Of a stretch of DNA of 38,240 bases, positions 27,001-33,000 are shown one piece after another. The DNA lies in the IMG/VR virus record IMGVR_UViG_2541047968_000009, positions 1 through 38,240 of that record; one strand, 5' to 3'. A program made the position numbers. The first letter of the stretch is position 1; every line of letters starts with the position of its first letter. The DNA comes from a virus. Lineage: Duplodnaviria; Heunggongvirae; Uroviricota; Caudoviricetes.

Positions 27001-30000
27001 AGTAAGCTGTGCGTGCTGTGGATCTGCATCAATTGACAAAAACGTCTGCTGAAATTTCGGTGACTGCGCCAGCTCAGCGTAATCCGCATTAAGAACAGCA
27101 TCTGCTGCCGACATTGCACTCTGCCCCTGTGCACTGGCTGTGGAATGGGTGATCAGGCCCGCATGGAAGAAATCCGTCATTTTTTTATCGACAGCTTCTG
27201 CTGCCAGTGCCGTGGCTCTTTCCGGCTGCACTCCTGCCGCGATGTATTTTTTCTCCAGCCCGGCGGTCAGCGTTCTTTTCAGTGCGACCTGTCCCACCTT
27301 TCTAACCACACCGCCAGCAACCAGATCAGGTACAAGCGCACCAATCAGGTTTACACCCTTCGTCAGCAAGACCGCAGAATCATCATAGCCTTCACTCATT
27401 GGCGTGTTCAGCGCACGAACAGCACCCGGCGACATCTGATCTGTCAGCCATTCATCCGAGGCTTTGGCACCATCACTGACTGCCTTGCCTGTGGCCTTCA
27501 GACCTTTACCGACAGTATCAGTCACCGCGTTTTTCCCTGTTCCATCGGGAATGTTTTTAATCGCATCTCCAACAGAAGGTGGTGCGCCCAGTTCCTTTTG
27601 CGTGGAGGAAGGCGGCATGTAAACATCCGTCATGAAAGACGACAACCCGGCAAGCGTTTTTACAGGATTATTTACAAGTGCATCACCGAGTCCACGGGCC
27701 ATTTCCCCTGTTCCCCGGACGGACTGGGCGAAACCTTTACCCATTGTTGGCAATACATCGCCCAGGCTGAACGACGTGCTGTGATCAACAGCGTTCTCCG
27801 GGTTGTTGAAAAAATCCTGCCAGTAATTTTCTCCCGGCTGCTTAATGTTCAGACTGCTGCGGTTCTGGTTACCCAATTGCGCTTCAGGGCGCTGCTCATC
27901 TGAAAAAGCCATACAGACTCCAGTAAAAAAAGCCCGACACGATGGTCGGGCGTAAGTGAACGAGATTAACGGTGAGTGCGTTACTGCCGCGTATTTTTAC
28001 TTCATCCAGCCTTTGATCTTCTCGGCAGATGCGGAAGCGCTATAATCCAGCGCCTTTTCATGCTCTGCCTTTTTATCCCTGAGGTGATTCTGGTAATAAA
28101 TTTCCACCTCCTTTTCACGACCAGGTTCCAGCAAAGCAGGCATATTGGCGGCAGTCGCTTTTACAAACTCCTGTTTAACCGGATCGCCCGCCGCCCACGT
28201 CTGCCACTTCTGTAAAAGCTGTTGGGTTTTCTGTTGCTGAATTTTCTGTTGATGCGGTTGTGAACCAGTCGCAGCATAATATTCATCCACCGCAGCCTGT
28301 GCATTACCGCCATTCTTGATCGCGTCCGCCGCTACGTTGCTGGCCCCCTTCTGAAGCTCTTTCAGAGAAAGTCCCTGCTGCTTCGGCATAAAATAACCAT
28401 AATTTTTCGATATCTCTGCAAATTTGCTGCGATCCCTGACCTGAGCGATAGCCTTATCAACGGGTATCGCCAGCACGGTTTGATCATCAGGGTGCGCACT
28501 GCCGTATTCTGTTACAGGTTTATGCGCGGTGGAGCCATCGCTGTATGTGAGATCAAGGCCAATAAGTACGTACCCTTCCTGCTGCGCCGGTACGATACTG
28601 CCAATCCTGGCCTCTTTTATCGTTTTTTCCCCGGTTGAATCAGGCATGCCAATACGCTGTTGTAGTTCCGGGGCAAACACGCCGGAAAGCACATCGAGAT
28701 TTTCCGGGGTATTCAGCGAAGCAATCGCCCTGTCCGGCTTATCATCAAAGATTTTCTGCAGGTTGTTCACGGCCTGACCCGCTTTCGCAGCATAGCCTAC
28801 CGTTGACATCATCTTAAGCGGATTGGCGTCCGATAATTTACCGAACAGATGAGAAGCCGCATCATGGTCACCCGCATCAATCGCTTTTCCCAGCGCCGCC
28901 ATCACAGGCTGATCGCGCGCCAGCATATCGTTATACTCAAGCCGTCGCTGGTTGTATTTCTGCAACTGGAGTCGTTGCTGTTCCATCCCCAGCGACGCAT
29001 TCCGGTAATTCTGGTTGGCGTTAAACTCCCTTTCCTGCAGTGTGTAATTGCGGTCATCAACTTTGGCTCTGTAATCAAAGTTCCGCTGATCAACGTCTTT
29101 ATTATGTTCAAACTGAGACTGCGCAAATTCAAAATCGCGCTCGTTATTTTTCTGTTGCTGAGCAAGCTGTGCTTCTCGCAAACCAAGCTCCTTACGACGG
29201 GTCATTGCCTGGTCAACAGTGCTGAATCCGGCAAGTAACCCCTGTGCAAATCCGCTCATTCACCACTCCTTAAAACAAAGAACCAGCAATGCCGCCAATT
29301 ACTGCACCAGCAACAGCGCCAACAGGACCACCAACGGATGCGCCAATAGCCGCCCCCGTACCAATGCCCGTACCGATATTCTGCTTGTTCTGCGCTTTCT
29401 GCTGCGCCGCCATCTGTTTGTTCGCAGCCTCAATTTCTTCACGTCGTCGGTCTGCGTCACTTATTCCCTGTAATGCCTCACGCCGTGACTGATTCGCAAT
29501 ATCCAGTAAACCGTATCCCATATTTCCTCCTTACGCTGACACCAGTTGTCCGCCAACACTCAGTTGCTGTCTTGCAGGTGCAGAAGCCCCCGTCAGTATG
29601 TTCATCTGACGATCCTGCTCTGCTTCACGGATACCATTTTTCGCGCCAGCAATTGCCAGGGCATTACGTAACCCCAGCGTATTACTGTTGGGATTATCAG
29701 GTCGGTTAACGCCATATCGTGCCATCTGGTTATCCTGCGCCATCTGCGCTGTACGGAGACTGGAAGTGGCAAGGCCGCCCACCCGGGCAAGCTGTGCATT
29801 CATCAGGCTGTTGTTCTCGCCAAGGTCAGCCAGCCTTGCTACACGGGGTAAATATCTGGTGCGCCAGTCGTCGTATTGCTGGCGGGTCAGCGCTGCGGAT
29901 GTCTGCCAGTCCCCCTGAGGGCGGGCTGCTCCGGTATAACCGTATCTCGCAAGTGTTTCGTATTTACCGTACTCCATAATCACAGTCTCCAGTTCTGAGC

Positions 30001-33000
30001 CTGATGCTGAATGGCATTAGCGCCGGTGCCAGGTGTTTTAGCACCGCCACTTCCTCCGCTACCACCAGCCTTATGCATCGCATATGCACCTACCGCACCC
30101 AAACCAGCGCCAACAAGAGAGGCTCGCCCCTGTTGTTTCGTAAACGCAGCCTGTGCGTCCGATTTAGCTTTTGCCAGACTGCTGTCTGCCAGCGAGTTAA
30201 AACTCTGTAACGCATCTGCCTTCTGACCGGAACCGAGAGCCGCAACATCCTGTAGCCCGGCAATATATTTATCTGCCTGCGATACCTGCCCCCGTGTGGT
30301 CGTGTCAATCTGCCCGATCACCTGGTCGCTTTGATTTGCATCCATTACTGCATTAAAACGACCACTGGATGGGTCAACGCCGGACTGAGCAAGATTACCC
30401 GCCAGCTCCCTTCGCGCTTCACCAAACTGTTTCTGATACCCAAGATTTGTTGTGCCTGCGATATTTTCGTACTGCTGCTCACTGTTAAGGTCATCGACCT
30501 TTTTCATGAAGTTATCTTCTGCCGGACGGAGAATATTTTTGTAATCCTGCCACCCTTTCCAGGCCACCTCTTCCTGTGCTATTTGCGCTGCTGTTGGTTT
30601 TACTTTGGTATCACCACCACCTTTACTTCCGCCCATAATGGCTCCTCAGATAACAAAAAACCCTGCCGGAGCAGGGTCAGAATGTGAATTGCAATGTGGG
30701 TTTACGCTCGATGATGAATACAGTGGCAGTCAGACTGCTATCCTGAACACCATGAAGCCATCCTCATCATCCGGCATTCGCTCAAAGCCCAGACGTTTTC
30801 CCAGCCGGATAAATCCTCGTCTTGCCGTATGAAATTCGGCCCAGCGTCCGCCAGCCAGGCGGGTTAATGTCTTCACCTCCGGCAGATAACGCTCAACACT
30901 CTTACTCCCCGTACACACGCCCAGTAACACCAGAACATAAGGGATACCATCGTCACTGAGCACAGAACGCAGCACCAGAAAACCATCCGGCGCTTCAAAG
31001 CAAAACGCCTGCTTTTTAAGGCAGGCGTCTTTAACTTCATTCATAAATTCAGGGTTGCGGGAATTTCTCACAACACGCTGCATATACCGGAGAATTCTGT
31101 CGTCCATTCTCTCACCTGAAACGGGTGCCATATCGGCTGAACCTCAGCAACCAGTTGACGGGGACTTTCGTCCCCGTCGCGGTTTTCCTACTGCTTACAC
31201 TGTAAGAACGCCGCAAACTCCGCTCCCCACAAATTCAGCCGGAACTCACACAACGAGCCGTGTAACATCCAGATGGTGAAGATTACCGTCATACAAATTG
31301 TGACGGTGATGAGCGATTTTTGCGACATAGCGCTTGCCTCCTGAGTGGAGAGGCGCTAACCTTCTACTTGCTTAAGGTATGATGGTTAGGGCCTCGGGTT
31401 AAACAAAATGTTTGACTCGGGGCCTTTCCACATCAGGCCTTCAGGTTCTCCCTCCAGCCATCAGCCGAAAGGCACCCGCGCATAATCTACGATTTTTGCC
31501 CTGCACGGGCAACAAAAAACCCGCCATCACAGCGGGTTATGACATGTTGTCGGGTATTACTCAGAATTTCAGGCCAATGCCTGCAAATAAACCATCAGTT
31601 TTCCAGTCGCCAGAGCCTGAGCTTTCATAAGTGACGTCCATAGTAACACTTTCATTGAAGTTAAATTGCGCGCCGACAGACCATGCAATAGACGTTTTTT
31701 TGGTGCTGTTACTTTCAGAAAAACTACCGGCACCATGATTAAGATTGTCGTTAATTTTCAAGTCAGTGGTGACTTTTGCAACCCCCATGCCAGCCATTGC
31801 ATACACACTGAGGTATTCGTTAAACCGCCACGAAGGACCGGATAGTAGACTCCAGTAATTAGCCCTGATATCAGTTCTCGCTGAAGCTGCCGGGTTTTTT
31901 ACCTCTCGTGATGGATCGGAAGGCTTAACATCAATAAATGCCTGCGCATTAGTCATGGAGCGCGCCCATGTAAAAGAGGCTATAACACCCAGTTCATCAG
32001 TTATCTCGTAACGATACCTGATGCTCATCCCCAGGGGGCTTTTGGCTGTGCCGTCATGCCCCCGGGCAATAGCATTTTCGTATTCAGCTGATGAATTAAA
32101 ATGGTTTACGTTTACAACATTCCTGAACGTATCCCGGTTATAAACACCCGCGTCTCTAACAAAATCCTTCAGCCCGGGGAAGCGTATGTGTGCAAACCCG
32201 AGAGATACCGTACTATCGCCTGATGCTGCATTTACCTGTGCAGTTAAGCAACTCATCACCAGAACTGCACACGCAAAAAATTTCATGATACTTTTCATTT
32301 TAAGTATTTCTCTGAATTAAAGGATGCGATGTCTGAAAGGAACGCTTTCGTTTTACACTATTAAAGTTTTTCTTACGCTAATCATATATTGAGGAATTAA
32401 TAACCAGAACTTTATCTATATACGGCTTCCGAATATCCCATGTTGCACGACCGGAATAATGCTCACAGGAATATATTTTATTTCCTGTAGCCCCCGTTGA
32501 TGTGGTGTAAATCGGTCGGTCATAAGGTGTACGCTGCCAGTTATAATACCCAACCAGTGCAGGCATAATTGCGCATGGATATCCAAGATCCTTCTCAAAC
32601 TTGATATCAACTGGTATTAACTTCGCGTCAAGCAGCATCATTTCGCCATGGTAAATCATCTCACCCGACGGGTTATACATGGCAATACCATACTCAGAAG
32701 GTTGAGTAACCATATTCGCAAAAGCATAAACAGTCGTAACACCAGGATTCGTTCCCCTGACAATTTGATGAAGCCTTAAGGCATGATATCCATCAATCTG
32801 TTCATGTGTGTACATGACATCGGCCTTTTTCTCTGTTCTGATAAAGAAAAAACAACTTTTTCCTGACGGGATTGATGTTTTAAAAAAAGCCTTCTCAGTC
32901 GCCGGAATAGTTCCCTTATTGATCAGACACTGAGGCGTAAACCCCGGGCTTATCCACAAGCTGCCATCTGGTTTCGTAATGCTTAAACCATACATACAAC

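Follow-up and report, generated by a model that had tools for sequence, protein, structure and literature searches.

The window analysed here is the whole 38,240-nucleotide (nt) stretch of IMG/VR virus record IMGVR_UViG_2541047968_000009 (Caudoviricetes), and the elements in question are three hairpins followed by T-runs (T1, T2 and T3), which lie among co-oriented genes on its minus strand. A 5-kb region of the window is 100% identical to a prophage found in several E. coli genomes, and 89–96% identical to short-tailed Stx-converting phages of the 933W/Sp5/Phi24B type. In the identical genome surveyed, the insertion site of the prophage is ynfG, and its gene content includes lambda-like exo/bet/gam, N, a cI-like repressor, a nin region, a Q-like gene, lysis genes and an N4-gp56-type capsid; no stx genes were found in that prophage. 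The Q-like antiterminator is a 204-amino-acid (aa) protein encoded after ninH, which matches phrog_753 at 3.3e-68 and has no match in Pfam. This Q-family gene is located upstream of the lysis and structural genes, as in a lambdoid late operon; the pR'/qut/tR' region, annotated in 933W, falls outside the window. By these sequence comparisons, the window is an stx-less lambdoid 933W/Sp5-like prophage of E. coli.

The late operon is found on the minus strand of the window, with the gene order tail-tip fibre, p93, p208, lom, hok, an open reading frame (ORF) annotated as 133 aa, p218, p148, p83, p420 and an 8.4-kb gene for a giant protein of 2787 aa (Table 1). The products of p218, p148, p83 and p420 are probable internal virion proteins.

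Table 1. Predicted features of the late-operon segment, listed in the order of late transcription (positions are those of the window)
Feature	Position	Strand	Basis or details
p93 and p208, gene pair after the tail-tip fibre gene	32378..33282	-	phrog_557 and phrog_425
AT-rich spacer upstream of lom	32299..32377	-	68% A+T, allele-specific; comparison of loci
lom, Ail/Lom outer-membrane beta-barrel gene (cargo)	31561..32298	-	Pfam PF06316 at 2.9e-29
T1, putative intrinsic terminator after lom	31512..31538	-	stem 31538-31518 AACCCGC-TGTGATG-GCGGGTT, then TTTTGTT
hok module	31115..31512	-	Pfam, Rfam, fold, promoter score
hok promoter, TTGCCC-17-TAGATT	31512-31484	-	score 11.2, >99th percentile of background; predicted +1 at 31477
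Sok-like antisense RNA	31334..31429	+	promoter score and fold
hok ORF	31188-31328	-	PF01848, 33.2 bits (cut-off 22); phrog_251 at 2.8e-24
hok 3' stem-loop	31179-31156	-	fold
fbi element, pairing with 5' end 31477-31461	31140-31123	-	fold
p125 (phrog_610), virion-module gene of the backbone	30730..31107	-	PHROG profile, homologue alignment
T2, putative intrinsic terminator between p125 and the 218-aa gene	30650..30678	-	stem 30678-30659 GACCCTGC-TCCG-GCAGGGTT, then TTTTGTT
Four-gene block between T2 and T3: p218, p148, p83 (Gly-zipper), p420	27997..30636	-	gene order same in all relatives
T3, putative intrinsic terminator between p420 and the giant gene	27925..27951	-	stem 27951-27932 GCCCGAC-CATCGT-GTCGGGC, then TTTTTTT
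Giant 2787-aa polyvalent protein gene	19549..27912	-	domain search: LPD5, LPD1, MuF_C, LPD38

The stems of T1–T3 consist of 7–9 pairs, 5–6 of them G–C, and the calculated hairpin energies are −11.7 (T1), −14.5 (T2) and −12.4 kcal/mol (T3). The d'Aubenton-Carafa score, computed with our own implementation, was 6–16 for T1, 26–36 for T2 and 31 for T3, the reference values being 30 (trp attenuator) and 25 (lambda tR2); the T-tail scores of all three sites (3.8–4.9) are similar to those of the same two reference terminators. Fold z-scores in 41-nt segments were −2.3, −4.2 and −3.5 for T1, T2 and T3, respectively. A terminator scan returned 27 sites against 15.5 ± 4.2 in shuffled sequence, with T1, T2 and T3 as the three top sites of the minus strand, where three of the six matches with at least four G–C pairs lie in intergenic spacers. 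The T-run of T2 ends 13 nt ahead of the ATG of the 218-aa gene (30636), directly before GAGGAG, and that of T3 ends 12 nt ahead of the ATG of the giant gene (27912), directly before GGAG. The preliminary description of this region had reported three minus-strand terminators, two of them close to the next start codon, and both observations hold. By score, T2 and T3 are on a par with the trp attenuator and lambda tR2, and T1 is weaker.

Sites of this kind are also found elsewhere in the late operon. In the part of the same prophage that lies outside the window (locus L001), sense-strand terminators follow the portal gene (6584-6609), the major capsid gene (8986-9003) and the next gene (9429-9447; all +), and the latter two are located 19–20 nt before the following start codon. 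A terminator adjoining a Shine-Dalgarno sequence is therefore a general habit of this late operon and not a mark of cargo.

For comparison of the three sites between phages, 44 related IMG/VR viral contigs served as close relatives (45 loci in the stem comparison), and profile-guided searches of wider relatives recovered about 50 further loci, including Aeromonas phage phiARM81mr, Vibrio phage D80, and prophages of Citrobacter, Pectobacterium, Brenneria, Symbiopectobacterium, Aeromonas and other hosts. In all of these distant loci the order p125, p218, p148, p83, p420, giant gene is preserved, and lom was found in none of them. No loss of the T1–T3 hairpins was seen in intact close relatives among the 45 loci. 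The stem of T2 is invariant among close relatives, and a homologous T2, with one compensatory C–G to A–T change, follows p125 in loci L076, L077, L080 and L112 (Citrobacter braakii), all of which are without lom. T2 is absent from L118, a Pectobacterium locus with other cargo (a Cor-like gene) at the site, as well as from the Aeromonas, Vibrio and Brenneria relatives, in which the p125–p218 gap is only 7–15 nt. The Aeromonas and Vibrio comparison alone would have made T2 specific to the cargo-bearing lineage, a reading rejected on the four loci named above. Thus, T2 is, on its distribution, a backbone feature of the Escherichia/Citrobacter clade that does not depend on the cargo.

T3 is more widely distributed. 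Among close relatives it occurs in three allelic forms, in which the helix is kept via A–U to G–C and G–C to G–U to A–U changes and the 5' spacer diverges; compensatory changes affect two pairs of the stem, and the proportion of paired cells is 95%, as compared to at most 51% for slid controls. Equivalents of T3, hairpins with a T-run that separate the giant gene from the homologue of p420, were detected in 23 of 40 loci by a strict scan that accepted perfect stems only (0.045 expected per scanned segment), and about 10 further loci have one with a single internal mismatch. These equivalents were seen in Escherichia, Citrobacter, Brenneria, Aeromonas and Vibrio relatives, and the sequence of the stem is unrelated from one lineage to the next. 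The T3-like terminator of Vibrio phage D80 precedes a spacer of 75 nt that contains a promoter-like site (read by eye, unscored), which suggests that the p420 homologue and the giant gene meet at an old boundary between transcription units. T3 thus has the appearance of an ancestral punctuation mark, and both T2 and T3 seem to be older than the cargo. An anti-Shine-Dalgarno helix (UCC...GGA) around T3 was considered as well; it is present in some alleles, is absent from the allele of the window, and was dropped.

The position of T3 also bears on the annotation of two giant genes. In 933W (L046, 29026-29069), the RefSeq start is an ATG located just 5' of the T3 hairpin, so that the annotated protein "translates" the terminator; the ATG after GGAG, 14 codons downstream, agrees with other genomes. 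In phiARM81mr (L047, 14813-16541), the giant-gene frame opens at 14813, right after the terminator and GAGGA, and the record puts the start 1.7 kb further downstream, leaving an apparent gap.

The genes that precede T2 differ in their history. Among the 44 close relatives, lom, hok and the following ORF are present in identical order in every one, and no cassette-free locus was found; in the distant relatives with both flanks preserved, lom and hok are missing throughout. The amino acid identity of Lom ranges from 64% to 100% among close loci that are more than 90% identical in the flanks. At least five AT-rich classes, unrelated to one another, can be told apart in the spacer upstream of lom, and identity between the lom alleles returns precisely where the T1 stem begins. 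Thus, lom is a swappable unit reaching from the p208 stop codon to T1, which marks the right-hand border of allele exchange. The stem of T1 itself is invariant in the 45 loci, and so uninformative on compensation; the sequence just 5' of it varies with the lom allele. The G–C content of the lom–hok cargo is 0.37–0.48, lower on the lom side, as compared to 0.50–0.57 in the backbone. In L113, a p208-like gene is directly coupled to p125, and in L077 the cargo site is empty, with the fibre gene running straight into p125 (TGA-TC-ATG). By these junctions, the insert proper comprises lom, T1 and hok/sok, about 1.26 kb, at an otherwise tight p208–p125 junction.

This junction is also a hot spot for other genes. 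A Cor-like gene is found there in P. betavasculorum, and four E. coli-lineage loci (L024, L029, L030 and L044; e.g., L024 3941-5520) carry a 1.6-kb insert with a gene for a YadA-like adhesin. The insert starts exactly after the hok fbi element (GGCACCCGTTT) and comprises a long AT-rich leader and the gene for a 398-aa trimeric autotransporter adhesin; its assignment to an insertion sequence element was rejected on this content.

The ORF annotated as 133 aa belongs to the backbone. It was assigned to phrog_610 and designated p125; its product is 42% identical to p64 of Aeromonas phage phiARM81mr, and the gene is present in every relative. Both the PHROG family profile and the homologues begin at residue 9 of the annotated product; the true start is therefore likely to be ATG 31107 (125 aa) and not the annotated ATG 31131. 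The annotated start falls inside the hok fbi element, and ATG 31107 is preceded by GGTGAGAG. Within the p125 coding sequence, a further hairpin with a T-rich tail was noticed at 31005-31028 (minus sense; ACGCCTGC-N8-GCAGGCGT, then TTTGCTTTG). The homologue in the Aeromonas phage (L047 11690-11715), with a protein identity of just 42%, has this hairpin over the same codons (A-C-x-x-K-Q-A-F); the terminator score of the hairpin is negative, and protein constraint may account for its conservation.

On the other side of the cargo, p93 and p208 were examined as possible cargo as well, being tblastn-absent and of low G–C content. This was rejected on their divergent counterparts, as Pectobacterium and Brenneria prophages carry a pair of genes for 94 aa and about 250 aa in the same place, coupled directly to p125. 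The pair p93 and p208 is therefore variable backbone and not cargo.

Analysis of the sequence between T1 and p125 revealed what is predicted to be a complete hok/sok-type module. The hok promoter is close to consensus, and its −35 box overlaps the U-tract of T1. The predicted 363-nt hok transcript folds at −158.5 kcal/mol (z −7.5) and is closed by 5'–3' pairing: its first 17 nt pair with an element located 20–60 nt past a strong 3' stem-loop, which is the tac–fbi arrangement. In the minimum-energy fold, this pairing involves GGGUGCC and UUCGGCUGA with UCAGCCGA and GGCACCC. No compensatory change in it was found among the alleles, and a GGATGCC variant is uncompensated. On the opposite strand, a Sok-like promoter (TTGCCT-17-TAACCT, 31334-31362; score 9.6) overlaps the hok ribosome-binding site, and the predicted RNA, of about 60 nt (~31369 to 31429), ends in a long hairpin and UUUCC. 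At gathering thresholds, Rfam gave nothing in the region; only at a permissive setting was the sok model RF01794 matched (42.1 bits, E-value 3.3e-7, below the gathering score of 59). This locus is distinct from the hokW/sokW found elsewhere in 933W, is thus a second locus of the kind, and is unannotated in the 933W record.

The module shares with hok/sok of R1 parB and hokW/sokW of 933W/Sp5 a Hok/Gef peptide with SLCE-R and AAF motifs, a long structured leader, the pairing of the 5' end with fbi, the 3' stem-loop, and an antisense RNA of about 60 nt whose promoter overlaps the hok ribosome-binding site. It differs from both in the sub-threshold Rfam sok match and in two missing parts. The first is a mok frame: no in-frame or overlapping upstream ORF was found, only a 15-codon upstream ORF that ends 58 nt before hok. 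The second is a terminator right after fbi, such as L076 and L080 have in their R1-like modules; without it, transcription of hok probably proceeds across p125 as far as T2. In the Citrobacter-type relatives (L080 1120-1580; L076 970-1430; L112 ~4118-4270), the hok/sok module is a different one, of the R1-like type, and includes fbi and a mok-type extension. That module sits immediately after the tail-tip fibre gene, with its own terminator directly before the Shine-Dalgarno sequence of a tail-fibre gene.

The same interval has been described as the source of 24B_1, a "microRNA-size" 20-nt RNA of Phi24B with an 80-nt precursor, placed between lom and vb_24B_43 and assigned the promoter boxes TTGACT and CGCTAACCT (PMC4426718). 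The 24B_1 sequence is antisense to the hok leader in 933W (L046 25568-25587, minus strand) and in 33 other loci, its counterpart in the window lies at 31400-31421 (+), and the published promoter boxes are those of the Sok-like promoter. The published 189-nt delta-24B_1 deletion was made with primers that begin in the loop of T1 and stop at the ribosome-binding site of hok. The mutant therefore lacks the T-run and 3' arm of T1, together with the promoter and the whole leader of hok, and Sok. It is thus fairly probable that 24B_1 is derived, as a fragment, from the terminator hairpin of the Sok RNA, the antitoxin of an overlooked hok/sok module directly downstream of lom, and that the delta-24B_1 phenotypes reflect loss of a toxin–antitoxin module and a terminator instead of loss of a microRNA. 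The mapping of 24B_1 antisense to the hok leader is certain; its functional reinterpretation is uncertain. The 24B_1 papers and reviews up to 2025 do not mention hok or sok in connection with 24B_1, and neither lom nor Stx nor 24B is mentioned in a 2026 preprint that surveys Hok.

The published expression data for this type of phage relate directly to the arrangement of these sites. In Phi24B, lom is strongly expressed in lysogens and unchanged on induction, and CM7, the homologue of the giant gene, is induction-dependent, which Riley et al. found surprising given its place downstream of lom (PMC3342100). In Stx phages, the action of Q at pR'/tR' is required for late transcription (PMC7547250). 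In the window, the 12 nt between the T-run of T3 and the giant-gene ATG contain no promoter, and no promoter above the 90th percentile of background was found in the T2–T3 block. Consequently, the giant gene is reachable only via read-through of T2 and T3. The preliminary description had already held that expression of the giant gene implies read-through or antitermination, and with a Q-like gene encoded by the prophage this part of it is borne out. The need for read-through is well founded on the sequence, and Q would meet it most simply.

Taken together, it is likely that T1–T3 are Rho-independent terminators acting in two layers of the Q-antiterminated late operon of a lambdoid 933W-like prophage. 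In the cargo, T1 would end lom transcripts and, with its U-tract overlapped by the −35 box of hok, would shield the hok promoter from upstream transcription. The second layer would be the backbone, with T2, T3 and the terminators after the portal, capsid and next genes, all older than the cargo. In the lysogen, T2 and T3 would halt RNA polymerase without Q modification, including polymerase that travels from the hok promoter through p125 to T2, and the ejection-protein genes and the giant gene would therefore be silent. On induction, Q-modified polymerase from pR' would ignore all of these terminators. Their position against Shine-Dalgarno sequences would follow from packing into the short intercistronic spacers of a compact operon. 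T1, T2 and T3 together would thus explain the Phi24B pattern, with lom expressed in lysogens and the giant gene dependent on induction. The sequence itself shows the terminators with their conservation and covariation, the borders of the cargo, the anatomy of hok/sok and the Q-like gene; from these we infer that the sites terminate in vivo, that they are read through with the help of Q, and that they silence the genes behind them. Resistance of Q-modified polymerase to T1–T3 is assumed by analogy with lambda. In lambda, Q-modified polymerase reads through terminators efficiently.

Several observations weigh against this explanation. By its d'Aubenton-Carafa score, T1 is only a modest terminator. 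Promoter scoring recognised no lom promoter above background in this allele. T3 is missing or has no T-run in six loci, three of Pectobacterium and one each of Symbiopectobacterium, Brenneria alni and Citrobacter. In addition, the D80 relative may not use Q-type control and yet has a T3-like terminator, in which case Q-tied silencing would not be the whole story.

The last point touches on an alternative which is less probable than Q-overridden silencing but a serious candidate, namely that T2, T3 and the portal and capsid hairpins act mainly in lytic growth, as partial terminators or 3' RNA-stability elements that set cistron levels, with lysogenic silencing as a side effect. Upstream structural proteins would then be abundant and the 2787-aa giant protein scarce. 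Like sites do follow the major capsid and portal genes, the gene directly after T3 is in every case the one whose protein is probably required in small numbers, and T3 is kept in the Vibrio phage whose giant gene seems to have its own promoter-like site. A pure stability element, however, needs no T-run, yet the T-run is conserved everywhere, and the efficient passage of terminators by the Q-modified polymerase of lambda also speaks against partial termination under Q. The alternative is compatible with silencing in the lysogen and does not exclude it.

The view that T1–T3 came with and bracket an independently transcribed cassette of lom, hok and the 133-aa ORF, as the preliminary description had it, is unlikely. 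Hok and the ORF are indeed enclosed by T1 and T2, and the cargo status of lom and hok is upheld by their absence from distant relatives and their G–C content below that of the backbone. The ORF, however, is a backbone gene, and no hairpin was found in the 79-nt spacer upstream of lom (32299-32377), and T1, directly after lom and serving as its own downstream terminator, lies between lom and hok instead of at the edge of a bracket. The comparison with relatives lacking the cassette cuts the same way, in that lom and hok are gone, T2 persists at the empty site of L077 and is absent with the other cargo of L118, and T3, at a distance of four genes from the cassette, is kept in other genera as well. 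As for the AT-rich promoter region ascribed to the cassette, hok has a high-scoring promoter; in the AT-rich spacer of lom, the best sigma-70-like score of this allele is 5.9, equal to the background median, as compared to 10.9 in the 933W-type allele. That the hairpins are functionless chance inverted repeats beside T-rich spacers is very improbable. Weak terminator-like matches are common in the window, as the shuffles predict, but T1–T3 are top-scoring and all three intergenic, stems are kept with compensatory changes while the flanks diverge, and T3 recurs with unrelated sequence in other genera.

The architecture is of a known kind, as both morons that carry a terminator of their own and intrinsic terminators that Q overrides are textbook lambdoid features. 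Like the lambda morons lom and bor (the moron concept of Juhala and Hendrix), the cargo has an Ail/Lom gene between late structural genes, its own downstream terminator, a lower G–C content, expression in the lysogen (Phi24B lom), and a place in an operon read by Q-modified polymerase. It differs from them in that lom stands back-to-back with hok/sok, whose promoter overlaps the lom terminator, in that this allele has no recognisable lom promoter and no upstream terminator, and in that the phage is a short-tailed 933W-like podovirus and not a lambda-type siphovirus. With the lambdoid and Stx phage systems of Q antitermination (pR'-qut-tR') the prophage shares a Q-like gene after the nin region and a long late operon with strong intrinsic terminators to be read through; the present prophage differs from the Stx phages by being without stx genes. 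Terminators between co-oriented cistrons, ahead of a gene expressed at a lower level or after a capsid gene, are also known from rpsU-dnaG-rpoD and from T-phi of T7, although in the present case partial termination is only a candidate reading.

Two further groups of features were observed in the window. At 36344-36362 (+), a strong terminator (GGGGAGC-ATGTT-GCTCCCC followed by T7), oriented against the late operon, occupies a 180-nt spacer between a small ORF and a 567-aa gene, and similar GGGGAG...CTCCCC hairpins recur just beyond the window (L001 13700-14030, minus strand). At 14664-14752 and 15201-15286 (+), two matches to Rfam sRNA-Xcc1 were found above the gathering score (69 and 73 bits), about 90–115 nt downstream of near-consensus promoter-like sites (14545-14574 and 15055-15084). 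Each of them is located directly upstream of an antA/antB antirepressor gene or pseudogene and resembles a structured 5' leader; IbrA/IbrB-like and Panacea-domain genes and an IS1 are found nearby.

The significance of the terminators as such is small. The lom-to-next-gene region, unannotated in 933W and Phi24B, has been treated as a source of a microRNA-like RNA, and a hok/sok-type module at this place would change the reading of the delta-24B_1 mutant. T2 and the cross-genus terminator T3 would account for the silence of the giant gene in lysogens despite constitutively expressed cargo upstream, which may be of use to those who work on Stx phages.

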